Positions 83-12,245 of a stretch of 12,245 nucleotides of DNA are shown here, in pieces. The notes under the pieces were generated by a model, which worked only from the letters and a program-made list of their open reading frames with translations, did not search any database and had not been told where the DNA came from. The number at the start of each line of letters is the position of its first letter. Position 1 is the first letter of the stretch. The position numbers and the translations under genes are program-made. Source of the stretch: Promethearchaeati archaeon (lineage in GTDB: Archaea; Asgardarchaeota; Heimdallarchaeia; JABLTI01); contig JABLTI010000096.1 in the NCBI GenBank assembly GCA_013166835.1, positions 1 to 12,245 on the forward strand, given 5' to 3'.

Positions 83-1030
83 TTGAAGATTATTGGTAAC
101 CCTACCTCATCTAGTGGTAGAGCGAAAAAGAGATGGCCCGATTATAAGGAAGCATTGGAAAATGCTGGTTTTGATGCTGATATAGTATGGACTGAGAAGC
201 CCGGTCATGCTATAGAAATTGCTAAAGAAGCAAGTGAAAGTCATAAGCTTATTGCTACTTATGGTGGAGATGGAACTGTTAATGAAGTCATTACAGGAAT
301 CGGTCAATCAGGATTTAAGAGTACTCTTGCCATTCTTCCGGTTGGAAGAGGTAACGATAATGCTTTCAACATTCGGATGACAAAGAATCTTGATGACCTA
401 ATTGAAATGCTCCAGAAAAAAGAGGTACGAGAAATTGACTGCATTGAGATCAATGATGGTCAAAGGTATTGTATGGGTGTCGCGGGTGCAGGTTTAGATG
501 CAGATGTCTCTGAACAAGTTTATAATAAAGGTGGTACTAGATTCGTTTATTACTTAGCTTTAGTCAGATCAATTTTCAGGTATCGACCTAGAATGATGGA
601 GATTGATATCGACAATGGTACAATTGTTAAAGAGGGGAAAGTACTCACAGCAATGATTGGCAACGGTCAAATGATTGGTGCGGGTATGTTAGTAACTCCT
701 AATGCAATCATTGATGATGGATTACTAGATATTATGGTAGTTGGCAACACTGGTTTTGTTGACACATTAATTACCTCTGCGAAATTAGGGAAAGGTACTC
801 ATTTATCTAATCCTAAAGTAAACGTCTACCGAGGAAAAACAGTCACATTAAGTAATAAGTCAAAGAAGAAGATATTTGGTCACGCAATGGGTGAATTTGT
901 AGGTCCACTACCTATCAAATTTACTTGCTTGCCTAAAAAATTGAAAATACTTAAGATGTCCGACGAAGTTCTCGAACGAGAAGGCTGGTTGGATTGCAAC
1001 GCCTTCGCAGCTAATGTTTCAAAGGACTAA
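83..1030 (+). CDS. Diacylglycerol/lipid kinase family protein (YegS/Rv2252/BmrU, DAGK_cat)
   Basis: Motifs NPTSSSG, TEKPGHA, GGDGTVNE, LPVGRGND, GAGLDA and DDGLLD. TTG start preceded by AGGAG at 69-73. Confidence 0.93.
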   Translation: MKIIGNPTSSSGRAKKRWPDYKEALENAGFDADIVWTEKPGHAIEIAKEASESHKLIATYGGDGTVNEVITGIGQSGFKSTLAILPVGRGNDNAFNIRMTKNLDDLIEMLQKKEVREIDCIEINDGQRYCMGVAGAGLDADVSEQVYNKGGTRFVYYLALVRSIFRYRPRMMEIDIDNGTIVKEGKVLTAMIGNGQMIGAGMLVTPNAIIDDGLLDIMVVGNTGFVDTLITSAKLGKGTHLSNPKVNVYRGKTVTLSNKSKKKIFGHAMGEFVGPLPIKFTCLPKKLKILKMSDEVLEREGWLDCNAFAANVSKD

Positions 1031-1045
1031 AATTCAATAACAAAT

Positions 1046-1081
1046 ATTGGGAAAAAGGCTCAAGGCAAATAATTTCCCAAT
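1046..1081. terminator. Inverted repeat between convergent genes, possible terminator hairpin
   Basis: ATTGGGAAA (1046-1054) and TTTCCCAAT (1073-1081) form a perfect 9-bp stem with an 18-nt loop, between the stops at 1030 (+) and 1081 (-). Confidence 0.45.
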
Positions 1082-1266
1082 TATTTTTTCCATGTGTGAT
1101 TACAATCTTTACACTGATTTTCTTTATGAACAACGATTTTGTTGAGTCTAGTATGCATACCACTACAAGTATAATTTAAAACAGGTTTTTGGTTTACAAC
1201 AATTGTTTCAATCAGTCTAGAACTACACTTTGGACATTTCATAAATATACTATATTTTATTTTCAT
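1081..1266 (-). CDS. Small zinc-ribbon protein (CPKC...CKDC); true start probably ATG at 1242
   Basis: MKCPKCSS...QCKDCNHTW has two CxxC pairs and a terminal Trp, typical of archaeal Zn ribbons. A TATA-like TTTAAAAT on the - strand (1272-1265) lies 23-30 nt upstream of ATG 1242. Confidence 0.7.
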   Translation of the reverse strand: MKIKYSIFMKCPKCSSRLIETIVVNQKPVLNYTCSGMHTRLNKIVVHKENQCKDCNHTWKK

Positions 1267-1327
1267 TTTAAATTATAACTCATTATTCTTACAAATAAGG
1301 AATAAAAAAAGTCTACTAATCTTCTAT

Positions 1328-1801
1328 CTATTGTATTATATCATTAGCAATTGCACTGAGTTCTTGTTCACCATTTATTATAGAATGATTTTTTGTAGCT
1401 TTTACTTCTTTCTCAAGAATATTTGCCCAGTTAATATTATCTTGAATTAATTCTATTTCATTCCCTCTTTCTGTCAATCTTTCTCGAATAAGACTATCAC
1501 TAATCTTAATCAAACCAAATCGAAGATTTAACGTATGACTGAATTCTGAGGAATCCAGTACTTCTTCAGGTTTAGACACCCCACAAATAATTGTAGATTT
1601 TCCTTGAGACATATTTTCTTTCGCTTGTTTCAACCAATGATCAGTTGTTTTTAAACGCCATGCTACATCCACATCCTCAGGAACACCCACTTCATCGAAG
1701 TCATGGATAGCAAAAGAAGGCATTAATTCTCTTAATTTAGGAACAACAGATGATTTACCGACACCTGATACCCCTGTAATGAAAATGATTAACTCTCTCA
1801 T
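1328..1801 (-). CDS. P-loop NTPase, nucleoside/nucleotide kinase-like (AAA_18/AAA_33 type)
   Basis: N-terminal IIFITGVSGVGKS Walker A, HDFDE after strand 2, and an RERLTERG lid motif. Confidence 0.85.
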   Translation of the reverse strand: MRELIIFITGVSGVGKSSVVPKLRELMPSFAIHDFDEVGVPEDVDVAWRLKTTDHWLKQAKENMSQGKSTIICGVSKPEEVLDSSEFSHTLNLRFGLIKISDSLIRERLTERGNEIELIQDNINWANILEKEVKATKNHSIINGEQELSAIANDIIQ

Positions 1802-1823
1802 AGTTTTGTGTGCGATTCCAGTT

Positions 1824-1831
1824 TATTTAAA
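1824..1831 (-). promoter_or_regulatory. Putative archaeal TATA box for the P-loop kinase gene (leaderless-type spacing)
   Basis: TTTAAATA on the - strand, 23-30 nt upstream of ATG 1801, with no obvious RBS in between. Confidence 0.45.
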
Positions 1832-1920
1832 ACTTGTTAAATTGTGATGAGAAAAAACTCCAAATTAATAGAAAAAATTGGAGAATAGAAATCAACAAAA
1901 AATTTCTATTTTACTGATTT

Positions 1921-2286
1921 CTATTGTGGTGTTTTATCGGGATAAAACTCAGGACTGTTTTTGATGGAATTAATAATCTCATCTTGGAATTTAAAATGGA
2001 TAAAGATGTATATAACGTAGACAATTAAACCAACACCAGTAATACAAAGTAACATCATAACACAACTTAGTGCCAATGTTGGAAAATTCCCAACAACATC
2101 AATTTCTGTATAATTTTCGAATTGAAAAACTTTAATCGTTGCAGCAATCATAGCGTTTTTCCTGATTAGGAGCCATTCTGGATTGTAACTACCTTTCTCA
2201 TATCCTGTTCGACTACTGATTATTTCAACCGCTCTTTCTTCTGTCAAATGTGGTTGGTGACTTAATTTAACTTTAATTCTTCTCAC
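1921..2286 (-). CDS. Hypothetical small membrane protein
   Basis: 121-aa ORF with one long hydrophobic stretch (LALSCVMMLLCITGVGLIVYVIYIFIHF), probably a TM hairpin. GGAGG lies directly next to the GTG start, so the exact start is uncertain. Confidence 0.7.
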   Translation of the reverse strand: MRRIKVKLSHQPHLTEERAVEIISSRTGYEKGSYNPEWLLIRKNAMIAATIKVFQFENYTEIDVVGNFPTLALSCVMMLLCITGVGLIVYVIYIFIHFKFQDEIINSIKNSPEFYPDKTPQ

Positions 2287-2401
2287 CCTCCTTTGATAAC
2301 TTATTTTTGATTTGAAATTTTAAAAATGTTATGTGAATGAAATTTCCAAAAAAAAATTCAGATCATCTTTCCAGACATAAAAAACAATTTTAAAGCACAA
2401 T

Positions 2402-3442
2402 GTGATAATACGAGGTATGAAAGCTGTCCAATTAATAGAAGTAGATAAAGATTTAGAAAATCGAGAAGTTCTAAAACCGGAACCTCAAGGAGATGAGGTT
2501 TTAGTTAAGATTAAAGCAGCAGGAATATGCCATTCGGATGTACATTATCGAGATGGGGTAGGTTCTGTTGGTCATTTACCAATTACTTTAGGGCACGAAG
2601 TTGCAGGAGTGATTGAAGAAGTCGGACCAAACGTAACCAGATTCCAAAAAGGTGATAGAGTTTGTGTCAATTATATGATAACCTGTGGAAAGTGTCATTT
2701 CTGTGTGAAAGGTTCCGAGCAGTTTTGTGAAAAGGGTAAAATGATTGGGAAAGATGTTAATGGAGGGTATGCAGAATACCTTTCGATTCCTTCTCGAGGT
2801 ATTTACAAACTCCCAGATTCTGTTTCGTTTGACCATGCAGCAGTTATGATGTGTTCAACAGCAACTTCACTCCATGCACTAAAGAAGACCCGTTTGCAAC
2901 CAGGAGAAACGTTAGCTATCTTTGGTTTCGGAGGTTTAGGTGTTTCTGCGTTCCAATTAGCAAAGGCTTTTGGTGCTCGAGATATTTATGCAGTGGATAT
3001 AGATCCTGTAAAGTTAAAGTCCGCGAAAGAGATGGGCGCCATACCTATTAATGCTAAGGAAAGTGATCCTGTTGAAAAAATCATGGAATTAACCAATGGA
3101 ATAGGCGTAGATGTTGCTTTAGAATTAGTTGGTTTACCACAGACTTTGGACCAAGGAACTCGAGTATTAGGACGATTTGGACGATTAGGATTAGTTGGAA
3201 TAACTAGGGATCTATACAAAGTTGATTCTTACGAAGCAATCTGTAAAGAGAAAGAGATAATTGGTTGCTCAGATCACTTATTATCCGAATTATCAATGCT
3301 CCTAGACTTAGCAGATCAAGGAAAAATAGATTTAACTCATGTTGTTACTAAATCTGTTCCACTTGATGCTGATGCGATAAATAATGTTCATCATCAACTA
3401 AAGGCTTTCAAAGCAGACTTCAGAACAGTAATCAAGCCTTAG
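2402..3442 (+). CDS. Zinc-dependent alcohol dehydrogenase (MDR superfamily); likely start ATG 2417
   Basis: GICHSD, GHEVAG, structural Zn site CGKCHFCxxxxxxxC and Rossmann GFGGLG. Asp in AVDID suggests NAD preference. TTTTAAA at 2388-2394 lies 23-29 nt before ATG 2417 (MKAV...). Confidence 0.95.
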   Translation: MIIRGMKAVQLIEVDKDLENREVLKPEPQGDEVLVKIKAAGICHSDVHYRDGVGSVGHLPITLGHEVAGVIEEVGPNVTRFQKGDRVCVNYMITCGKCHFCVKGSEQFCEKGKMIGKDVNGGYAEYLSIPSRGIYKLPDSVSFDHAAVMMCSTATSLHALKKTRLQPGETLAIFGFGGLGVSAFQLAKAFGARDIYAVDIDPVKLKSAKEMGAIPINAKESDPVEKIMELTNGIGVDVALELVGLPQTLDQGTRVLGRFGRLGLVGITRDLYKVDSYEAICKEKEIIGCSDHLLSELSMLLDLADQGKIDLTHVVTKSVPLDADAINNVHHQLKAFKADFRTVIKP

Positions 3443-3456
3443 TTTTTTCTTTTTTT
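3443..3456 (+). terminator. Oligo-T archaeal-type terminator
   Basis: TTTTTTCTTTTTTT immediately after the ADH stop codon. Confidence 0.6.
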
Positions 3457-3562
3457 ACTTCCTTATTTGGATAGAGAATAGTTAAATTACTTGATGTTAT
3501 ATAGAATATAGTAATAAGAATAAACAATAATATATAGTTTGTATTTACTGGGGGGATAATAA

Positions 3563-4801
3563 TTGAATTATAATAAAATGCAAAAACAAATTTTATGCTT
3601 TATCGTTTTAATGATAATGTCGATAGGATTAATAACTATAACTAGTTCAGTAAATTATCAAAGTAATTCCATTATTCAATTGAATTCACAATCTAGAAAA
3701 ACTATTAGCTTAAATAATGATATAACCAGAGGTGGTTCTACTATTTTCGCTAATGGTAGTTTGCTTTATTTCTTAGATGATGAATATGGATTCGCAATTA
3801 TTAATGTAAGTATTAAAGATAAACTTGAAGTTGTTGGAACGTTTAATTACTCTCGTTACCTTACAAGTGATTATAGTAATATGATTATTCAAAACAAATA
3901 TGTCTATTTCTTTAGTCATGATATCAATAGGATTACAATACTGGATTGTACAAATATTTCAGATATCAAATTATTTGGATATTACACTTTACCAGCTGGA
4001 TCATACAAGAAAATTGCTATTCTTGACTGGAACATATTCACTATTACTTCTACAGAATTTAGTATTTATAACTTCACTAACTTCTCTCTTATTTCACTAA
4101 TAGATAAATATACTAATGCCAGCTCTAGCTTTTTTGATTTAACAATTCAAGGAAATTACGCCTATATTCTAGACTATGACTATGGATTAGCAATATTCAA
4201 CATAACGGATTCAACAAATATTCAAAAAACAAATGATTTGGTATTAAACGATTATGCTTACACAAATTTCTATCTAACTGATGATTATGTTTACATTTAT
4301 GAAGAAAGTATTGGTTTACAAATCTATGATGTTTCAAACCCATTAGCTCCATCGAATGTCACAAAATACGAAATTTCTGGTTCTACTATCAATGATCTTT
4401 TAATAAAAGGTAATAATGCATTTGTACTGCACTCGAAGTCTTTTGACATTCTCGATATTTCTAATCTACTTGAAATTCAACTAGTTGGTAGATATACAAC
4501 TGAATTAGTTCCTTTATTTGATTCCATCAGTGTTGATGGCAATTTTGCATATTTAACAAGTATTCGAAGCGGTGAATTATTCGGAAGAGATCCTCTATTC
4601 ATAGTTGATATTACAAATCTCGAGTCACCCATTCATTTATTTCCAGAAGATCCATTTCAATTACTTTCAGATCTAGCTAGACTACTTTTGATAATTGCTG
4701 GAGTTGTATCAGGCGTTCCTGTATTATTTTTAGCTATTTTCATACCAATTTTCTTAACTAAAAGAAAAAAAGCAAATATGAATACTAAAGGACAAATGTG
4801 A
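3563..4801 (+). CDS. LVIVD-repeat, membrane-anchored cell-surface protein
   Basis: N-terminal signal peptide and repeats such as GNYAYILDYDYGLAIFNITD, YVYIYEESIGLQIYDVSNPLAP and LFIVDITNLESP. C-terminal TM helix followed by KRKK. GGGGGG RBS at 3550-3555. Confidence 0.88.
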   Translation: MNYNKMQKQILCFIVLMIMSIGLITITSSVNYQSNSIIQLNSQSRKTISLNNDITRGGSTIFANGSLLYFLDDEYGFAIINVSIKDKLEVVGTFNYSRYLTSDYSNMIIQNKYVYFFSHDINRITILDCTNISDIKLFGYYTLPAGSYKKIAILDWNIFTITSTEFSIYNFTNFSLISLIDKYTNASSSFFDLTIQGNYAYILDYDYGLAIFNITDSTNIQKTNDLVLNDYAYTNFYLTDDYVYIYEESIGLQIYDVSNPLAPSNVTKYEISGSTINDLLIKGNNAFVLHSKSFDILDISNLLEIQLVGRYTTELVPLFDSISVDGNFAYLTSIRSGELFGRDPLFIVDITNLESPIHLFPEDPFQLLSDLARLLLIIAGVVSGVPVLFLAIFIPIFLTKRKKANMNTKGQM

Positions 4802-4925
4802 ACAATAAAGCGTTAACTCAAGAAATATTGTTTCCAAAAAGATTCAAACAAATATATGAATTCCATAAAAGCTATACAAAGTTAAATAGAATTCTCTCAA
4901 ACTTATGCTTTAAACTAAAATACTG

Positions 4926-4981
4926 TTCAAAATTGCTCTTCTTATCCAACTTGAAAATTTCATGAGGTTAGACAAACACCT
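4926..4981 (+). repeat. Dispersed intergenic element, copy 1 (core 4944-4973)
   Basis: ATCCAACTTGA-AAATTTCA-TGAGGTTAGAC-AAACACCT, nearly identical to 8017-8055. Confidence 0.9.
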
Positions 4982-5052
4982 GCGAAGAGATTAATGATTC
5001 TAATACTACCTTTCTAGCTTATTTTGATTTCTAATTAAACTTTTAAAAAGTG

Positions 5053-5085
5053 CTTCTAACACAACAACTTGAACAAATTAGTCAA
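5053..5085 (+). repeat. Degenerate, internally deleted copy of the element
   Basis: CTTCTAACACAACAACTTGAACAAATTAGTCAA compared with CTTCTAGCCCAACTTGAAAAA...TTAGTCAA in copy 2. Confidence 0.5.
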
Positions 5086-5175
5086 TGCAAATCTATTATC
5101 GAAACATTAGATTTCATTAATTTAATGAAAATATTGGAATAAAGCTTGCAGTTTGTAAAAGATTTTAGCTACCAC

Positions 5176-5907
5176 TTACTCATATTGCTCTCTAGGATCA
5201 ATCGAAGTTAAAGAGGTCGAAAAATTGTAGATAAAGTACTTTTCATCAATTTCAGATTCTGAAGATTTCTCACTTTCCATGTATAGCTCATGAATAGCTT
5301 GTCCAAATTGTGTGAAAATTTCGTTAAGCTTCTTTTTTTGCTCAATCGTTGTTAGGTTAAGATGAGAAAAATTGATGTAAATATTATCCTTATATTTTTC
5401 TTGAATATTTGTATCGTCTTTTGCTACTTGTTGTTCAATTATATTCGCAGTGTATATTGCAAAATTCTTGGCTATTATTGCTACACTTTTAGAAAAATCA
5501 ATTACTACACCTATATTTTTAGCATCATTAAAATTAAACTCATGTTCTCCTTTAATTCCCGCATTTATATTACTAAATAACTGATGAGCTAATTCAGTTA
5601 GTTGATAGAATTTTCCTCTCCCTATTTGCAATTTATCTTCTTCTATTAATCCTAATTCTAATAATCCTTTTTCACTTCCCATTTTTCCTCTGCCTTTAAT
5701 ATGTTCAAATGCTGAAGGTTCTCTAATTCCCGCAATTCTAGCAATCTGTTTTAGATTTAAAGAATTATAAAATTGTAGAGATAATAAAATACCTAATTTT
5801 GTTTCATTTGCTATTACCCATATAACTTCCTTCACTCTATTCTTGTCTTGCATTATATATTCACTTCTTTTCGATACTATAACTTCTCTACATTTTATTT
5901 TTTTCAA
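5176..5907 (-). CDS. Winged-HTH (ArsR-like) transcriptional regulator with C-terminal domain; likely start ATG 5853
   Basis: IANETKLGILLSL...SLNLKQIARIAGIREPSAFEHI...LLELGLIE...KFYQLTE fits the ArsR-type wHTH pattern. It is divergent from the peptidase, with tandem palindromes in between. Confidence 0.8.
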   Translation of the reverse strand: MKKIKCREVIVSKRSEYIMQDKNRVKEVIWVIANETKLGILLSLQFYNSLNLKQIARIAGIREPSAFEHIKGRGKMGSEKGLLELGLIEEDKLQIGRGKFYQLTELAHQLFSNINAGIKGEHEFNFNDAKNIGVVIDFSKSVAIIAKNFAIYTANIIEQQVAKDDTNIQEKYKDNIYINFSHLNLTTIEQKKKLNEIFTQFGQAIHELYMESEKSSESEIDEKYFIYNFSTSLTSIDPREQYE

Positions 5908-5930
5908 TAATATAAAAAGTCTTATATTAT

Positions 5931-5970
5931 ATTAGGATTCCTAATTTAAAGGAATATTAGGAAACCTAAT
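5931..5970. promoter_or_regulatory. Tandem palindromic operator ATTAGG-N3-CCTAAT (two copies) flanking a TATA-like TTTAAA
   Basis: ATTAGGATTCCTAAT (5931-5945) and ATTAGGAAACCTAAT (5956-5970), 25-bp period, with TTTAAAGG at 5945-5952. Confidence 0.8.
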
Positions 5971-5971
5971 T

Positions 5972-7891
5972 TTGATTATTAGATTTCACAATAAAAAGGT
6001 GATAATTTTGGCAAAGGATAAAATAGGAATGAATCAATCAATCACTCTAGTAAAAGCAAAGTATAATTTTGGTCAATACCACAGATATCGATCTTTGGGA
6101 AAGAAAAGAGATATTCATAATAATGGTAAATTTTCACCTCTCAATTCAGAGGAATTTTACTATATAGATAATACCTGTGGACAATACGATATTTGGAAAC
6201 AGAAATTACCTGGGAGCTATCCGCTTCAATTAACCTTCTCTGAGGAATGGATTATATCGAGTTTTATTATTTCTAATGATGGTGCATCTATCTTCTTCAA
6301 TGCCCATTTTCAAGGAAATGAGAAAATGCAAATTTTTACCCTCCCTACAACTGGAGGACCTCCTAGAAGAATAAGTAAGAATCTAGAAATGCACTATTTA
6401 ATTTCCCCAAACTGTCAGCTTGATGAAACACACTTAATAGTCACAAGTAATCAATTCGGACCAACTAACGATGTAGCGATTCTAGATATTGAAACAGGAG
6501 AGTTAGATTCTCTAACTGCATCAGATAGAAATTTAGTCATGGAAGCGATTTCCACTGATGGAAATTATTTAGTAATTAGTGAATTTGTTAGGCATTCAAA
6601 AAGTAATCTTTACTTGATGTCTCTAGATAAAAAAGAGTTAGAATTGATTACAACATTTACTGGTGATGGGCACAATTTTTTCGCTTGTTGGACTGCAGAT
6701 TCAAAGGGTTTTTACCTTCTCTCAAATACAGAAAGAGAATTCATAGCTGGCAAGTATTATAATATATTGAATAAATCATCTGAGCTCATTATTGACCCAG
6801 ATTGGGATGTTGGAAAAGTATGTACATCCGCAGATGGTAAATGGCTTGTTTGGTCAGTTAATGAGAATGGTTATGATATTCTGTATCTCAAAGAACTAGC
6901 ATCTAATTCTAACAATATCTCAATTCTAAAATCTGAAGGGAAAATAGACTTACAAGAATTTTCAAAGGACTCGAAATTTTTAGCTTATGCCTATGGTGAT
7001 AGTACCAAACAATCAGACGTACATATTTTTGATCTGAGAACTCAGACCGAATATATAATAACCAAAAATATGCTTGGTGGTATTGATCCTCAAGATATGG
7101 TTAAACCTGATTTAGTGAAGATTACAGGAACAACGGGATTGGAATTTTCTGGTTTCTTGTTTAAGCCAAAAATAGAATTAAATCAAAAAGTTCCTATGAT
7201 GCTTTTCATCCATGGTGGCCCAGATTCTCAGGAACGAGCTACTTATGATAGTTTGAAGCAGATATTGCTATCATTAGGAATTGGGGTATTAGCACCAAAT
7301 ATCCGTGGATCGACTGGTTATGGACAAACGTTTCAAAAGCTAATACATCGGAAATTTATAGACATACAGGGTGATATTGAGGGTTGTGTAAATTATATAA
7401 AATCACTCGATTGGGTTGATGCAAATCGCATTGGTATTGTTGGTGGATCTTTTGGTGGTTTCGCTGCACTCTTCGCTATAACAAAAATAGCTTATATGGA
7501 TTGGACAGTTGCTGTAGATTTCTCTGGCCCATCAAATCTAATCACTTTTACAAAGAATGTTCCTGAACATTGGAAACCTTTGATCAAGGCATGGATAGGC
7601 GATCCGTTTGAAGATGAGGTAATGTTGAAGGAAGCAAGTCCAATCAATTTTGTTGATCAAGTTTGTTGTGAGAATATTTTGATTGGTCAAGGGGCAAAAG
7701 ATCCACGAGTACCCAAAACTGAATCTGACCAAATTGTGGAAGAATTAAGAAATATGGGCAAAAATGTAGAATATCTCGTTTTTGAGAATGAAGGACATAG
7801 CTTAAGTAAGTATAATAATTTTCTTGACTTTAATAAGAAAGCAATCGAATTCATTTACAAGAGTTTTTTCAATCTAGAAATTGATTTATGA
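5972..7891 (+). CDS. S9 family peptidase (acylaminoacyl/dipeptidyl aminopeptidase-like, beta-propeller plus alpha/beta hydrolase); likely start TTG 6008
   Basis: HGGP, NIRGSTGYG, nucleophile GGSFGG, acid GAKDPRV and base NEGHS. RBS AGGTGA at 5997-6002 precedes the in-frame TTG at 6008. Confidence 0.95.
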   Translation: MIIRFHNKKVIILAKDKIGMNQSITLVKAKYNFGQYHRYRSLGKKRDIHNNGKFSPLNSEEFYYIDNTCGQYDIWKQKLPGSYPLQLTFSEEWIISSFIISNDGASIFFNAHFQGNEKMQIFTLPTTGGPPRRISKNLEMHYLISPNCQLDETHLIVTSNQFGPTNDVAILDIETGELDSLTASDRNLVMEAISTDGNYLVISEFVRHSKSNLYLMSLDKKELELITTFTGDGHNFFACWTADSKGFYLLSNTEREFIAGKYYNILNKSSELIIDPDWDVGKVCTSADGKWLVWSVNENGYDILYLKELASNSNNISILKSEGKIDLQEFSKDSKFLAYAYGDSTKQSDVHIFDLRTQTEYIITKNMLGGIDPQDMVKPDLVKITGTTGLEFSGFLFKPKIELNQKVPMMLFIHGGPDSQERATYDSLKQILLSLGIGVLAPNIRGSTGYGQTFQKLIHRKFIDIQGDIEGCVNYIKSLDWVDANRIGIVGGSFGGFAALFAITKIAYMDWTVAVDFSGPSNLITFTKNVPEHWKPLIKAWIGDPFEDEVMLKEASPINFVDQVCCENILIGQGAKDPRVPKTESDQIVEELRNMGKNVEYLVFENEGHSLSKYNNFLDFNKKAIEFIYKSFFNLEIDL

Positions 7892-7980
7892 ACTTCGTTC
7901 GTACTTTTAGGACTATTCCTTATTCATCAAAGAAATCCATTCCGGATAGGATAAACAAATTTCTATTTTACAATTAATAA

Positions 7981-8072
7981 AAGAAAAAACAAAACTTCAG
8001 ACTCACACTTCTTCTAGCCCAACTTGAAAAATTTCATGAGGTTAGTCAACCACCTTTAAAAAGCATAGAAGA
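7981..8072 (+). repeat. Dispersed intergenic element, copy 2 (core 8017-8047)
   Basis: AAGAAAAA..TTCAGACTCACACTTCTTCTA-GCCCAACTTGA-AAAATTTCA-TGAGGTTAGTC-AACCACCTTTAAAAAGCATAGAAGA. Confidence 0.92.
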
Positions 8073-8080
8073 CAGGAAGA

Positions 8081-9112
8081 TTAAAGGGAATGAAGTATTG
8101 ACTGAATTATTTTCACATTCTCTTTAAAATCCCAAGATTCAAATCGATTAGAAAGTTCAAGAAACAAATATTGAATATGTTTCTCAATTAATTGATACTG
8201 ATTTGGCAGATTATTTAGAACAAATTCAACTAGGTTAGGTAAATGTTTTGTTTGAACTAATTCATGGTATAACTGATTAAGATGAGTTCGGTAACTTAGA
8301 TAGAGCGAATATTTATTCAAATTAATGAATTCTTTTGTGCTCTCAGCTCTTACTCCTGAAGTCAACAAAACACTATAGCTAACTTTTTTACGTTTTTCCT
8401 CAATTACAGTTACAGATTGTTCGACAATTTTCCCACAGAAGTCGCCTATTTTATTGTCAAGTATTTCACAGAAAGAAAGGATTTTCTTTTTTTGGTTTTC
8501 ATTTTCTAGTTTATCTTCATTCCTTGGAATAACAACTAATTCATAAGACTGTTTAATTGGAACTAAATAATGGAAATTTTGATCATATTGTTTTCTCATA
8601 TCCTGAAAAAGATGATCCTTAACAGGAACCATTTCATCTGCTTTTGCAACTGAAAAGGAAAAACCACCATCTAGCCAACAAACAGATGTTTCAACATTCC
8701 CGAATTCCTTTTGTATATGTGATTTTGTAAATGCCTCTGCTCCTGCGAAAGCTACAGCTATACCCGCAAAAGCAAGACCGATAGCTAAATCCCCAGCACC
8801 AGAAAAATACGGAGTGTACCCAGAAGACTGACCTCCTCCACCGATATAATTCCTAAGCACTCTTTCATTTAATGCATAATCGATTATTTTCTTTGTGTTT
8901 TTTTGTATTCGCTTTTCTTTCTTACCTTCTTCAGTCTCAGTTGGAAGCATAATCTGATCCTTGTCAATAACCAAACCAATTTCCCAGGCAATAGTTTTGA
9001 TATCCTCTTCAGATAGTTGAGTGATTACTGCAACCCAATTGATTTTAGCCTTTTTTTGTTTTTCAACCAACTCATGAAGTTCTTTCTTCTTTTCATCTGG
9101 TATTTCTGTCAT
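8081..9112 (-). CDS. Hypothetical protein with a central Gly/Ala-rich hydrophobic segment
   Basis: 343-aa ORF, ATG preceded by GGGTGGGTG. No family motif recognised. Confidence 0.8.
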   Translation of the reverse strand: MTEIPDEKKKELHELVEKQKKAKINWVAVITQLSEEDIKTIAWEIGLVIDKDQIMLPTETEEGKKEKRIQKNTKKIIDYALNERVLRNYIGGGGQSSGYTPYFSGAGDLAIGLAFAGIAVAFAGAEAFTKSHIQKEFGNVETSVCWLDGGFSFSVAKADEMVPVKDHLFQDMRKQYDQNFHYLVPIKQSYELVVIPRNEDKLENENQKKKILSFCEILDNKIGDFCGKIVEQSVTVIEEKRKKVSYSVLLTSGVRAESTKEFINLNKYSLYLSYRTHLNQLYHELVQTKHLPNLVEFVLNNLPNQYQLIEKHIQYLFLELSNRFESWDFKENVKIIQSILHSL

Positions 9113-9181
9113 TTAACACCCACCCGAAGAATAATCATGTATACTATCCTTTCAAAACTAATCTATTTTTCGCAAACAAAT

Positions 9182-9266
9182 AAGAAAAAATCAGTTCAAA
9201 CTCGCACTAATTCTCTAGCCCAACTTGAAAAAATGTCAACTGATACTTTTAAAAGTATAAAGAAGA
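9182..9266 (+). repeat. Dispersed intergenic element, copy 3 (right arm of core mostly deleted)
   Basis: AAGAAAAAATCAGTTCAAACTCGCACTAATTCTCTA-GCCCAACTTGA-AAAAAT-GTCAAC-TGATACTTTTAAAAGTATAAAGAAGA. Confidence 0.88.
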
Positions 9267-9311
9267 ATTATTGTTGATTATAATGCAACCACCAAAAAGG
9301 AGGAGCTGTGA

Positions 9312-10175
9312 GTGATTAACAAATTTCAATTTGGTCACACAGAACATGTTAGTTCTCATATAATATTTGGAGGTTATGCATTAAGCAAAGCAACGCAAGT
9401 AGAAGCAGACCAAATTTTAGATTTACTATTAAAATATAGTATAAATCATATCGACACAGCACCTATGTATGGGAATTCTGAAAAATGTATAGGATCATGG
9501 ATGGAAGAACATCGAGACAAATTTTTTCTAGCTACAAAATCACGTAAGAGATCCTATGATGGAGCCTGGAAAGATCTTCAGAATTCATTAAACAGATTGA
9601 GAGTTAACCAAATAGACCTTTGGCAGATGCATAGTTTAACCAATCCACAAGGTTGGGATAAAGCAATAGGTCCAGGTGGTGCTTTAGAAGCGTTTATAGA
9701 GGCACGTGAAAAGGGTTTAGTTCAATATCTAGGTGTAACAGGACACAGTAATAAAACTCCAGCAATGCATTTACGTAGTTTAGAACGTTTTGATTTTGAT
9801 ACAGTTATGTTATCATACAACTACACATTAATGCAAAAACCTCGTTATGTAGCTGATTTTATGAAATTAATTAGTTTGTGTCGTGAACGTAAGGTGGCAA
9901 TCCAAACTATCAAATCCATAGCTAGAAGACCTTGGGATAATCGAATAAAAACTTACAATACATATTTTTATGAACCACTCGAGAGTCAAAAAGCTATTGA
10001 TAAAATGGTACATTGGGCATTAGGTTTACAAAATAGTTTCTTAGTAACAGCAGGTGATATGAAACTTTTACCTAAAATTTTGGATGCAGCTAATCGATTC
10101 AAGAAAAAACCATCAGATGAAGAAATGAATGCTGTTATTGATGATTTTGATATTCAGTGGATATTTGATTATTAG
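9312..10175 (+). CDS. Aldo/keto reductase
   Basis: IDTAPMYG (catalytic D and Y), ATKS (K), IDLWQMH (H) and LGVTGH. RBS AGGAGGAG at 9298-9305 before the GTG start. Confidence 0.95.
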   Translation: MINKFQFGHTEHVSSHIIFGGYALSKATQVEADQILDLLLKYSINHIDTAPMYGNSEKCIGSWMEEHRDKFFLATKSRKRSYDGAWKDLQNSLNRLRVNQIDLWQMHSLTNPQGWDKAIGPGGALEAFIEAREKGLVQYLGVTGHSNKTPAMHLRSLERFDFDTVMLSYNYTLMQKPRYVADFMKLISLCRERKVAIQTIKSIARRPWDNRIKTYNTYFYEPLESQKAIDKMVHWALGLQNSFLVTAGDMKLLPKILDAANRFKKKPSDEEMNAVIDDFDIQWIFDY

Positions 10176-10196
10176 CTTACTCTAAAAGAAATTATT

Positions 10197-10266
10197 AAGA
10201 AAAATCAAATTCCAAACTCACGCTTTCGTTCTTGCCCAACTTGAAAATTACCTGAGGTTATACAAA
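10197..10266 (+). repeat. Dispersed intergenic element, copy 4 (core 10234-10263)
   Basis: AAGAAAAATCAAATTCCAAACTCACGCTTTCGTTCTT-GCCCAACTTGA-AAATTACC-TGAGGTTATAC-AAA. Confidence 0.9.
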
Positions 10267-10297
10267 TAAAACATAAAAAAATAGAAAGAAGTATGAA

Positions 10298-11164
10298 TTA
10301 CTTCCATGGTACATTTTTAACTAATTGTTTAAAAGTATCAAAATCACCTTCCCAGGGATGAAAACAGTGAACAAACCAGTTGACACCAACGGATGAATAC
10401 TCTCTAATCATCTGATCGAAATTATTTTCCTTTTCCCAATAAAAGAAGTTAGTCATAAAAACAACATCAAATGATTTGTTTTGCTGTTGCTGATATTTCT
10501 TAATATAAGTTAAAATATCTTGGTAGTCTTTTGCTTGAAGACCATCCCAAGAGTTAGCTAGTAAGGGGAACACCCCTTGATACTTTGCTGCTCGTCTAAA
10601 GGGCGGTTTATTTGGCCAATTACCACCCACCCAAATTGGTATGGAAGGTTTTTGAATAGGAGTAGGAAGGAATTGGGTTTCTTTAATTTGGTAATGTTTC
10701 CCATCGTAAGCAAACTTCTCACCAGACCACAAACCTTGAATTATGTCCAAACTTTCATCAAGCATTTCACCACGAAGTTTATCATTACTTTCCATGCCAA
10801 AAGCTGCAAATTCATTGACTGGATCACCACCTAAACCCACCCCCAAGATAAATCGTCCATTTGACAAATGATCCAAGGTAGCAGTTTCCCTAGCAACTTG
10901 CCAAGGACTCCTTCTGGATAATGGTGTCACAGTAGTACCAATACGTATCTTCTTTGTTTGACTTGCTATCGCTGCTAAAACAACAAATGGGTCCACAGCA
11001 TTTGCTTCAGGCATATCAGCTGGATAAAGATGATCCCATAAAAAGAATCCATCCCAACCAGCTTTTTCTGTTTCTTTTGCTAGCTCTACAAAATCATCTG
11101 CAATCCACCCTTTACCAAAATTAGCAATATATACACCGTACTTTATCTTAGAACTCAAAAACAA
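10298..11164 (-). CDS. LLM-class (luciferase-like) flavin/F420-dependent oxidoreductase; start possibly TTG 11158
   Basis: GWDGFFLWDH, IRIGTTVTPLSRR, LDHLSNGRFILGVGLG and PIWVGG. RBS GGAGTGA at 11171-11165. Confidence 0.94.
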   Translation of the reverse strand: MFLSSKIKYGVYIANFGKGWIADDFVELAKETEKAGWDGFFLWDHLYPADMPEANAVDPFVVLAAIASQTKKIRIGTTVTPLSRRSPWQVARETATLDHLSNGRFILGVGLGGDPVNEFAAFGMESNDKLRGEMLDESLDIIQGLWSGEKFAYDGKHYQIKETQFLPTPIQKPSIPIWVGGNWPNKPPFRRAAKYQGVFPLLANSWDGLQAKDYQDILTYIKKYQQQQNKSFDVVFMTNFFYWEKENNFDQMIREYSSVGVNWFVHCFHPWEGDFDTFKQLVKNVPWK

Positions 11165-11181
11165 TCACTCCACTAAACAAT

Positions 11182-11196
11182 AACCATTACATGGTT
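11182..11196. promoter_or_regulatory. Palindrome AACCAT-TAC-ATGGTT, candidate operator upstream of the LLM gene
   Basis: Perfect 6-3-6 inverted repeat 18-32 nt upstream of 11164, in a divergent intergenic region. Confidence 0.4.
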
Positions 11197-11344
11197 TTTT
11201 TAATTCTTAGTATAGTTCTGCAGTTAGGCATATTTCATTAACAAAAGTAGAAAATAAATTGTAAATAAAAAAATAAATCTGACTAAACAAGCACAAAAAT
11301 ATCTTTTTTATAGGTAATAGATCATCTATTTTTAGGTGAAATTA

Positions 11345-12245
11345 ATGAGTAAGAAGTTTAAATTTAGTTTTATTATACTATTTTTAATTATTAATTCATT
11401 AATTGTTAATTATAGTTTCTTAAACATTAGTGCAGAAGAAAAAACACCATTATCAAGATTAAGACCGGGATGGGATGTAATGACAATCTACGAACTAGAA
11501 CATCCTCCGGGTTCGAGTTGCACAGGTGAAAGTGGAGATTTCTATTATGTTGATAATCTGAATCATTATTTAATGAAAATGGATGAATTTGGTGTTCATA
11601 CACAATTAGTGAATACAAGTCCATATGATTTCACTGATATTGAGTATCAACCAAACACTAATCGGATTCTGGGAATTACCGATAAAGGATTTTTTGCACT
11701 CACATCAAGTTCATTAACTTTAATCAGTAATTATACTTATGCTGACCCATTAACTGCAATAGCAGTTAATCCGAATGATGATTCTTTTTATTGCGGATCT
11801 TTATCTGATAACACTGATATTCTGAAATTCGATGCAGATGGGAATTATATTTCAACTGAATTATCAAATGTTCAAGGTATAAGTCAATTAGTTCTTAATA
11901 ATAATCAAAGTATATTATACTATACAGAAACCTATCTTGGTTCAATTTCTTATTTAAATTTAACATCAGGTAGTTCTACACTTATTAGAACAGGAATAGG
12001 TTTACCAGGAACAGAGGAAGTTATTGGTATTGGAGTAGATGATTCTGATGTATTGTATAGTATGACTGCGGATGGTAATGAACGAGGATTTTACAAATAT
12101 AGAAATGGCACCTATGTTTTGCTAGTGGAATCCAAAGGTGGTATGAGTTCTTTAACGTGGTTTCCAAAATTGCAATCTTTCATCGCTGGTGGAAGCGCTA
12201 GTGGAGCATTAATTCAATACGATATCTCTGTTGAAAAAGCAAGCT
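11345..12245 (+). CDS. Secreted/surface beta-propeller-like protein (NHL/SMP-30-like), 3'-truncated by the window
   Basis: Manual translation MSKKFKFSFIILFLIINSLIVNYSFLNISAEEK...AIAVNPNDDSFYCG...ILKFDADG...GIGVDDSDVLY... stays open to the window end. Signal peptide present, RBS AGGTGA at 11334-11339. Absent from the ORF track because it has no stop. Confidence 0.85.
   Translation, partial: MSKKFKFSFIILFLIINSLIVNYSFLNISAEEKTPLSRLRPGWDVMTIYELEHPPGSSCTGESGDFYYVDNLNHYLMKMDEFGVHTQLVNTSPYDFTDIEYQPNTNRILGITDKGFFALTSSSLTLISNYTYADPLTAIAVNPNDDSFYCGSLSDNTDILKFDADGNYISTELSNVQGISQLVLNNNQSILYYTETYLGSISYLNLTSGSSTLIRTGIGLPGTEEVIGIGVDDSDVLYSMTADGNERGFYKYRNGTYVLLVESKGGMSSLTWFPKLQSFIAGGSASGALIQYDISVEKAS

Follow-up and report, generated by a model that had tools for sequence, protein, structure and literature searches.

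Intergenic repeats derived from the 16S rRNA 3′ trailer separate variable gene modules in a Heimdallarchaeia genome

Why should one 12-nt sequence recur four times on a single short contig, always between genes and always in the same orientation? The contig in question, JABLTI010000096.1 (12,245 nt), comes from a Promethearchaeati archaeon of the class Heimdallarchaeia and is analysed here at its full length, referred to as the window; it is contig C254 of a 260-contig, 3.56-Mb assembly that is 85% complete (genome G000). A preliminary description of this DNA had proposed that the repeats mark a cassette array, analogous to integrons or pdif modules, or else a local family resembling miniature inverted-repeat transposable elements (MITE) or repetitive extragenic palindromes (REP). 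The genome encodes the TATA-binding protein TBP, which marks it as archaeal. We find that the repeat unit corresponds, in reverse complement, to the 16S rRNA 3′ trailer, and that the units are probably displaced copies of this trailer, in an island that would have grown by serial Campbell-type insertion and would then have been rearranged by recombination between units.

The repeat unit is a copy of the 16S rRNA 3′ trailer

The 12-mer, CCAACTTGAAAA, starts at 4946, 8019, 9220 and 10236, in each case on the plus strand and with 0 mismatches, so that the sites are spaced by 3073, 1201 and 1016 bp. Its chance expectation in the window is 0.24, and four copies were reached in 0 of 200 shuffles; allowing one mismatch did not reveal a fifth site in the window. 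All four sites (named c1, c2, c3 and c4 along the window) are intergenic. Specifically, c1 lies between the convergent open reading frames (ORFs) 3563-4801 (+) and 5176-5907 (-), c2 between the convergent 5972-7891 (+) and 8081-9112 (-), and c4 between the convergent 9312-10175 (+) and 10298-11164 (-), while c3 separates the divergent ORFs 8081-9112 (-) and 9312-10175 (+). Positions, strand, intervals and the count of three convergent and one divergent gene pairs all agree with the preliminary description.

That description had also placed the 12-mer inside a longer conserved unit. Such a unit of ~90 nt is real, both by alignment and by R1, a sequence model of the repeat built from the archaeon's own genus, which scored the four window copies at 46-66 bits (E 4e-13 to 4e-19). 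It is, however, short, AT-rich and uneven between copies: an A-run with an AACTCRCRCT block is found in three of the four, the left half of c1 having diverged, and TGAGGTTA likewise in three of the four, with unrelated sequence in place of the right half of c3. In addition to the four full 12-mer sites, on which the earlier count was correct, we noticed a fifth, truncated unit (c5) that it had missed. This one was seen through alignment with unit D of the closest relative (G007) and unit 1073 of another genome of the genus (G004), which occupy the same place upstream of the gene for a luciferase-like oxidoreductase (LLM); R1 gave no match at c5. The segment 3484-3528 matched R1 weakly (E 0.15) and was not counted as a further unit. 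By eye, a weak and imperfect inverted repeat surrounds the core.

Read in the other sense, the unit is the 16S 3′ trailer, i.e. the 3′ strand of the processing stem together with a T-run. We make this identification because longer copies from the same genus reach into sequence that reads, in reverse complement, as the 16S 3′ end, because two contigs of one relative overlap in exactly this sequence, and because the trailers of three species align with the repeat. The continuations extend over 17 to ~45 nt. In genome G005, the contig that carries the 16S gene (C115) stops 91 nt past the gene, and its tail overlaps the start of contig C98 over ~96 nt with one mismatch; the overlap is the repeat unit, and the same tail fits an internal C98 copy at 7.4 kb much worse. 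The true trailers of G005, G009 and G010, all of the same genus, align with repeat copies, e.g. c2 is 78% identical to the true G005 trailer (C98:74-170) over 100 nt (E 4.6e-11). Upon co-folding, 5′ leader and trailer formed a long processing helix, of which the 12-mer core is a part. The trailer ends in a T-run, as does every unit in rRNA sense.

A dispersed REP/MITE-like family, or remnants of duplicated whole 16S genes, might likewise produce short, AT-rich, intergenic repeats, some of which include pieces of the 16S 3′ end. We consider this explanation very improbable. Scanning the own 3.56-Mb assembly with an nhmmer profile of the four copies returned four matches, all on this contig and in one orientation, and the next best hit had an E-value of 0.22; the lack of any significant copy elsewhere refutes the REP/MITE alternative of the preliminary description. 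The exact 12-mer occurs at six sites in this genome, of which the two off the contig have no unit context. Across the class, R1 (which is blind to the trailers of other genera) was run on 83 genomes, 11 of them of the own genus including G000. Matches were obtained in seven genomes, all of the own genus (G000 and six of the ten others); they lay on a single contig in four of the seven, and the six matches of G004 were spread over three small contigs. Same-orientation clusters of units were also seen when 40 relatives were compared at the DNA level, namely in G004 (C272, C377 and C163), G005 (C98) and G007 (C107). Among the 35 R1 matches listed at E up to 1, 23 were strong (E <= 1e-9); 22 of these share the sense of the true trailer, and the remaining one is inverted, being a second copy on L028, a short contig from a metagenome. 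A pattern scan of metagenomes found only three short contigs (L028-L030) with one exact match each, and no further arrays. Further arguments against this explanation are that the units do not form a self-complementary fold and that no 16S or leader sequence was seen beside them except for the 16S 3′ end itself (up to ~45 nt in the same genus, at least 90 nt in copy T1 of G012, a genome of a third genus). An Rfam scan at E up to 1 gave no match in the window, and none in L028-L030, L032 and L033.

Two units are placed as a transcription signal might be. c2 starts 9 nt past the stop codon of the ORF at 8081-9112 (-), here called U, and c4 starts 10 nt past that of the LLM gene (10298-11164, -); from this position and the T-run, both probably double as terminators that contribute a 3′ untranslated region to these genes. 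One could then suppose that a trailer piece was kept as a reusable cis-element for termination or RNA processing, and that the array is a by-product of selection for it. We regard this as distinctly improbable, because c3 lies upstream of U and behind no minus-strand gene, c1 is 180 nt away from the nearest minus-strand stop codon, and copies are found at one locus only in 3.56 Mb; the 16S-end fragments within copies and the permuted module order described below would also be left unexplained.

Module content and switch points in related strains

The preliminary description had treated the intervals between repeats as gene modules and suggested a comparison of their order in relatives. Elsewhere in the genome, G000 and G007 share 91% identity and are collinear over 20 kb; at a second locus the identity values are 93% and 86%. 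Their arrays are not collinear. The window reads c1-(243-aa ORF, S9 peptidase)-c2-U-c3-AKR-c4-LLM, where AKR denotes an aldo/keto reductase, and G007 reads A-X-B-Y-C-LLM-D-U-E, i.e. two modules that are missing from the window are followed by LLM and then by U, which thus comes after LLM instead of before it. U, found in G007 between units D and E, is 83% identical at the nucleotide and 72.5% at the amino acid level. LLM lies between units in G000, G007 and G004, with different neighbours each time; the segment c4 + LLM is 88% identical to G007 and 88.6% to G004, and the latter value exceeds the 68-81% background identity of G004 and G005 to G000. Other modules have few or no counterparts. Against the 40 relatives, module 1 gave one 41-nt match (E 8.2e-4) and no DNA match spanning the module, and AKR matched only genus g7, of another family of the class (four genomes, 66-73% nucleotide identity), with no DNA match in the ten other genomes of its own genus.

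Breakpoints of these rearrangements fall at the core. The stretch encoding ADH and the LVIVD protein to the left of c1 is 98% identical to G007 up to the CCAACT of c1 and diverges thereafter, the left half of c1 through CCAACT being identical to G007 unit A. Likewise, when c3 is compared with G007 unit E, the homology that extends over U stops at the last base of the c3 core. The assembled contigs of four public runs (X4, X5, X6 and X10) add to this picture. In a contig of run X4, from another study, 4943-10621 is reproduced with one differing base and one 24-nt insertion, which establishes that the arrangement of the window is real. Two further studies contributed runs X6 and X10, in both of which the S9 module carries another left half, one of canonical type; X6 is ~96.5% identical over 4946-7969, and the switch occurs at 4946, the first base of the core. 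Contigs of X5 and X6 show alternative continuations after 9224 and 9231. As judged from these contigs, each half of c1 segregates with its own neighbour: the left one, shared with G007, with LVIVD, and the core plus right half, shared with X6/X10, with S9.

We also compared unit halves in pairs. In the three pairs of units with a homologous left flank, the left halves were 0.82-1.00 identical and the right halves 0.60-0.68, the background over 155 pairs being 0.68 for left and 0.64 for right halves. Collectively, these alignments place the switches in or near the core; a single fixed crossover point is not proven. Window parts left uncovered in runs X5, X6 and X10 were not used for any conclusion. 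We also set aside the X6 joints 4981>9185, 5920>10185 and 10266>4947, whose sides measure only 27-35 nt and which probably reflect the similarity of units. The X5 contig starts at 9187 with another left flank; the few differences that it shows may be located within the left half, and for this reason we left aside a reading as a breakpoint. In the strains of both X4 and X5, 24 nt are inserted where c4 ends on the right (window 10271-10277).

Arrays downstream of the 16S gene and their possible growth

A single 16S gene was found in each of G005, G009 and G010, and immediately downstream of it the true trailer heads a same-sense array. The order in G005 is 16S gene and true trailer, 7.2 kb with a solute-binding protein and an FtsX/MacB permease, a copy, a PPDK_N/response-regulator gene, a weak copy, a copy, a zinc-ribbon protein, and a last copy; a methyltransferase, ADH and lipid kinase stand at the array end. 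The arrays of both G004 and G005 close with lipid kinase and ADH homologues, and in G010 ADH lies ~10.7 kb downstream of the 16S gene on one contig. By synteny with G005 and G010, we infer that the window, which holds lipid kinase and ADH genes to the left of c1, is the far part of a 16S-linked island, and we would expect the 16S gene beyond 12245 on the minus strand.

To see how general this layout is, we compared the last 40 nt of the 16S gene plus 300 nt downstream with 3.4-40 kb of downstream sequence per genome. The 16S end and trailer re-occurred downstream on the same strand in six of seven Heimdallarchaeia genomes from three genera: the own genus (G005, G009 and G010), that of the closed genomes G016 and G026 (3.08 and 3.33 Mb), and that of G012. 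Related genomes in this survey are not independent samples. In each of the six the first copy is the true trailer, and the seventh genome, G022, had no further copy within 20 kb downstream. As a control, 240 random 340-nt windows were drawn from six of the seven downstream regions, the 3.4-kb stretch of G009 being left out; 21 had a second same-strand copy, and these lay mostly in repetitive genes. The duplicated block starts at least 90 nt inside the 16S gene in G012 copy T1, 21 nt inside in G016 and 13 nt inside in G012 copy T2, and 17 nt after the 16S end in G026; its end points vary too. Full-length duplications of 95-97% identity flank inserts of 6.6 kb in G016, 14.5 kb in G012 and 38 kb in G026, which carry defence-type and leucine-rich repeat (LRR) genes. 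The first 6.6-kb interval of G016 holds two ORFs of no assigned function and a gene for a 1171-aa LRR protein, and beyond the second trailer copy lie a LAGLIDADG gene and a TCT-anticodon tRNA. Taken over the arrays, the cargo comprises small gene pairs of the DUF433/DUF5615 and HicB-like types, which we take to resemble toxin-antitoxin pairs, SIR2-STAND, HEPN and LRR genes, and assorted enzymes, a content that suits an island.

These arrays would be explained if DNA circles carrying a 16S end and trailer of their own recombined with the resident trailer. Such a Campbell-type event, through a putative circular intermediate, would leave an intact trailer beside the 16S gene for rRNA maturation and displace the older copy outwards; the outcome would be a same-sense array of trailers with cargo genes between the copies. 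Recombination between units could subsequently excise, delete and re-insert modules, most switches falling in the best-conserved CCAACT(T)GAAAA core, and would thereby generate the strain differences in module content and order. Older units would have been eroded on the side facing the 16S gene, leaving short units such as those of the window. Because no recombinase was found in the arrays (see below), the reaction would have to act in trans, the presumed catalyst being either homologous recombination or a site-specific enzyme.

Several observations weigh against this model. Typical integrative elements are much larger than modules of 1-3 kb that hold a single ordinary metabolic gene. Two R1 matches lie outside the known 16S locus (G010:C26:45798-45869, E 1.2e-10, and G006:C14:33705-33764, E 3.4e-4), and a search of the surrounding 8-12 kb gave no rRNA. 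No 16S gene is present in the own assembly, 85% complete as it is, and the link of the window to 16S comes from synteny. As to the switch points, the evidence is weakened because alignment ends are biased towards the borders of the best-conserved stretch; only one of two unit pairs with a shared right flank had right halves above background; and right halves end at many points, for which a single fixed crossover would need later deletions. Finally, neither a circular form nor an empty site was seen among the assembled public-run contigs.

The large inserts in the other genera raise the question of whether the units might instead be decayed remnants of several complete elements, each of which once integrated at the 16S end by its own integrase and later lost it. 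Such a tandem accretion would agree with the nearly identical duplications around the 6.6-, 14.5- and 38-kb inserts and their defence-type and LRR genes, with the erosion of window units on the 16S-facing side, and with the report of two elements, HeimM2 and HeimV2, at the 16S site (PMC8813620, as far as the accessible part of that source goes). It is a possible history, though not a likely one. Neither within the young duplications of G016 and G012 nor elsewhere in these two genomes is there a tyrosine integrase, close relatives differ in module order by permutation, and the 88.6% identity of LLM to G004 over a 68-81% background argues for recent exchange of a single module rather than decay in place.

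Which enzyme could be involved? Pfam searches of 30 array ORFs (ten each from the window, from G005/G007 and from G016/G012) found no recombinase, in line with the earlier statement that the window encodes none. The tyrosine recombinase family PF00589 had no match on the array contigs of G005, G010, G016, G026 and G012, with matches elsewhere in G005, G010 and G026. The preliminary description had suggested a search for copies near a tyrosine recombinase; the own genome has one PF00589 match, which lies off the array on contig C61 and whose best NCBIfam match is archaeal XerA, at 117 bits under the model's cut-off of 220. The integron integrase IntI was not detected in the own assembly, the integron-integrase models reaching 33 and 17 bits on the C61 protein where 265 and 435 are required; given 85% completeness, its absence is not proven. 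An all-against-all comparison of array ORFs from nine genomes gave no shared recombinase: common to different arrays were only ADH, lipid kinase, U, LLM and small gene pairs, and across genera only ADH, lipid kinase and small gene pairs. LAGLIDADG proteins were rejected as a general catalyst, there being no match on the array contigs of G000, G005, G009 and G010. Nor did the units resemble folded recombination sites. Six single-strand DNA folds (the four units on the plus strand, two also on the minus strand) had z-scores between +0.15 and +1.47, the fold being equalled or surpassed by 107-194 of 200 shuffles. Separately, a search of G016, a closed genome, and of G012 for PF00589 at E up to 0.01 returned no match, hence these genomes contain no recognisable XerA.

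These results bear on a dedicated site-specific cassette system with integron-like logic, in which an enzyme encoded elsewhere acts on the trailer core, the true 16S trailer plays the part of attI, and small circular cassettes are inserted and excised. Several features would suit it: the single orientation of the units, the cassette size of the modules (1.0-3.1 kb), unit halves that segregate with their own neighbours and switch in the 12-nt core, their most conserved part, and the module permutation between G000 and G007, which deletion between direct repeats alone cannot give. Toxin-antitoxin pairs are carried by chromosomal integrons, and pairs of such appearance are found in related arrays. 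Even so, we think such a system unlikely: no candidate enzyme was found among the few families that arrays share across genera, PF00589 is in no array and nowhere in G016 or G012, the boundaries of the duplicated block vary between events, the units have no hairpin structure, and membership of the core in the rRNA processing helix could by itself explain its conservation. It is doubtful, too, that Heimdallarchaeia have an rDNA-linked gene-capture platform, on which a host enzyme acting in trans would take a site within the processing-stem trailer for attachment and would insert, excise and shuffle small cassettes ending in half a trailer each, in the manner of an integron but with neither IntI nor attC hairpins. 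The weight that we do not give to a site-specific enzyme is divided between homologous recombination and the decay of once-complete elements. The cassette array of the preliminary description therefore stands insofar as modules are gained, lost and reordered with switches at the core; as an integron or pdif array in the strict sense it does not, given that neither hairpins nor IntI were found, the position of the XerA-like recombinase on another contig, and genes that run both ways. Of the two outcomes that it had named as refuting, neither was observed: relatives do differ in gene order with breakpoints at the core, and the copies keep to one locus and one orientation.

Known insertion systems and further features of the window

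Stable-RNA genes are classic landing sites for mobile DNA, the documented cases being tRNA and tmRNA (transfer-messenger RNA) genes. As Williams is said to have described in 2002, islands and proviruses occupy the 3′ ends of these genes, tandem islands included. The insert restores the target gene, a displaced partial copy marks the far end, and re-use of the site leads to same-sense repeats. The arrays considered here are alike in that the target is the 3′ part of a stable-RNA gene and the repeat consists of its 3′ end and flank, one repeat being continuous with the intact gene in the relatives and, by synteny, presumably also in G000. They differ in that the target is the 16S end and processing trailer rather than a tRNA, that no integrase was found beside the repeats, and that many modules are single ordinary genes. 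Insertion at a tRNA was ruled out, since searches of the window and of the arrays of its genus gave no tRNA.

Tandem cassettes are also known from the staphylococcal cassette chromosome (SCC) islands at the 3′ end of rlmH, some of which have no recombinase of their own and which are bounded by direct repeats of the insertion site. These bacterial islands use Ccr serine recombinases and repeats of roughly 15-20 bp. Both systems line up tandem cassettes between direct repeats of the insertion site at the end of one ribosome-related gene; unlike SCC, no Ccr serine recombinase was found here. In the pdif modules of Acinetobacter plasmids, 28-bp Xer sites in opposite orientations flank the modules, and the recombinase acts in trans. 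Small gene modules between recombination sites are common to both, whereas our units measure ~90-200 nt and share one orientation.

Integron arrays and clusters of attC sites lacking integron-integrases (CALINs) share with the window cassette-sized modules, same-oriented repeats, variable content and a contig without integrase. According to the accessible text of Ghaly et al. (2022; PMC9668308), attC sites of archaea and bacteria fold alike, and integron cassettes are mostly promoterless and in one orientation. In contrast, units here have no attC hairpin fold and no IntI was found, the genes lie in both orientations and appear to have their own upstream regions, and the repeat comes from an rRNA flank.

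The closest parallel is within the class. HeimM2 and HeimV2 are single elements of 8 and 44 kb that lie between the only 16S gene and a tRNA-Arg gene of Ca. Heimdallarchaeum (Wu et al., 2022; PMC8813620, seen in part). The layout of G016 (LRR protein, LAGLIDADG gene and the tRNA with anticodon TCT) matches the description of their site in the accessible part of that report. They resemble the arrays in class and in their place directly downstream of the only 16S gene, and in G016 and G026 the 16S end and trailer are duplicated 6.6 and 38 kb downstream, where the elements are described. The window, from another family of the class, differs in having at least five units, modules of 1-3 kb and no LAGLIDADG gene in its array, and the description, as far as that text is available, mentions no trailer duplications, arrays or single-gene modules. 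These two elements were the sole report of insertion beside a 16S gene that our literature search returned (PMC8813620), and in the sources as accessible we found no description of duplicated trailers or trailer-copy arrays. What is new here are such arrays and the cassette-sized modules between the copies; an insertion hotspot with duplication of the attachment site is already known from stable-RNA genes.

Heimdallarchaeia are usually placed nearest to eukaryotes among the archaea. In at least three of their genera the 16S end and trailer form a repeatedly used landing pad, and in one genus the modules are of integron size and differ between strains. If our interpretation is correct, extra trailer copies would be a simple marker for accessory-gene islands in Asgard metagenome assemblies and would explain assembly breaks at the 16S locus, and the question would arise as to what enzyme recombines a sequence on which rRNA maturation depends as well.

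The coordinates of units, modules and flanking genes are compiled in Table 1. The genes of modules 1-4 run -/+, -, + and -. With regard to gene calls, those made earlier for the S9 peptidase, AKR and LLM hold, and the proposed 'regulator + operator' is not confirmed, the 243-aa ORF (5176-5907) having only a weak EarA-like match (E 0.03).

Table 1. Repeat units, modules and flanking genes of the window (core, position of the 12-mer; strand of units in rRNA sense)
Feature	Position	Strand	Content	Basis
Unit c1	4912..4997	-	core 4946-4957; left half atypical	R1 64.9 bits, E 6.5e-19
Unit c2	7983..8072	-	core 8019-8030	R1 63.6 bits, E 1.7e-18
Unit c3	9182..9231	-	left half + core (9220-9231) only	R1 46.4 bits
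Unit c4	10197..10288	-	core 10236-10247	R1 65.7 bits, E 3.7e-19
Unit c5	11265..11294 (about)	-	truncated: A-run + left half, ends before core	alignment by eye
Module 1	4958..8018		243-aa ORF (5176-5907, -) + S9 peptidase (5972-7891, +)	Pfam
Module 2	8031..9219		343-aa ORF U (8081-9112, -)	weak MetE-like match, E 0.0085
Module 3	9232..10196		aldo/keto reductase AKR (9312-10175, +)	Pfam
Module 4	10289..11264		F420-type luciferase-like oxidoreductase LLM (10298-11164, -) + upstream region	Pfam, NCBIfam
Side far from 16S	83..4801		lipid kinase 83-1030, AAA 1328-1801, ORF of unassigned family 1921-2286, Zn-ADH 2402-3442, LVIVD protein 3563-4801	
Open-ended ORF	11336-12244		last ORF of the window	

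To the left of c1, AAA and 121-aa ORFs (window 1081-2400) separate the lipid kinase and ADH genes, which are adjacent in G005, and G007 has another gene upstream of ADH. The variable zone may extend to this side of c1.

Additional observations concern the relatives. In G009, an overlapping pair of DUF433 (94 aa) and DUF5615 (126 aa) genes lies between trailer copies (L022:1747-2353), with homologues in G010 (L023, ~4310-4901) and on contigs C377 and C163 of G004. The proteins are 83-91% identical between species whose genomes share ~70-80% DNA identity, and from this comparison it looks as if the pair moves between arrays. In G005, ~20 of 24 LAGLIDADG_3 matches fall in open frames of ~520-565 aa, and the other four genomes searched had 3-10 such matches of any frame length; the G005 set may represent a multi-copy element that bears a homing endonuclease. 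On contig C98 of the same genome (L017), the 156 nt after the T-run of the true trailer (145-300) are repeated with 89.7% identity at 10561-10716, i.e. 10.4 kb further on, where no strong unit stands beside them. In G012 (L036, contig G012:C23), the conserved 3′ terminus of the 16S gene is immediately preceded by ~35 nt that are extra relative to the other genomes; the stretch, which could be a small intron or an expansion, is also found in the duplicated copy 14.5 kb downstream.

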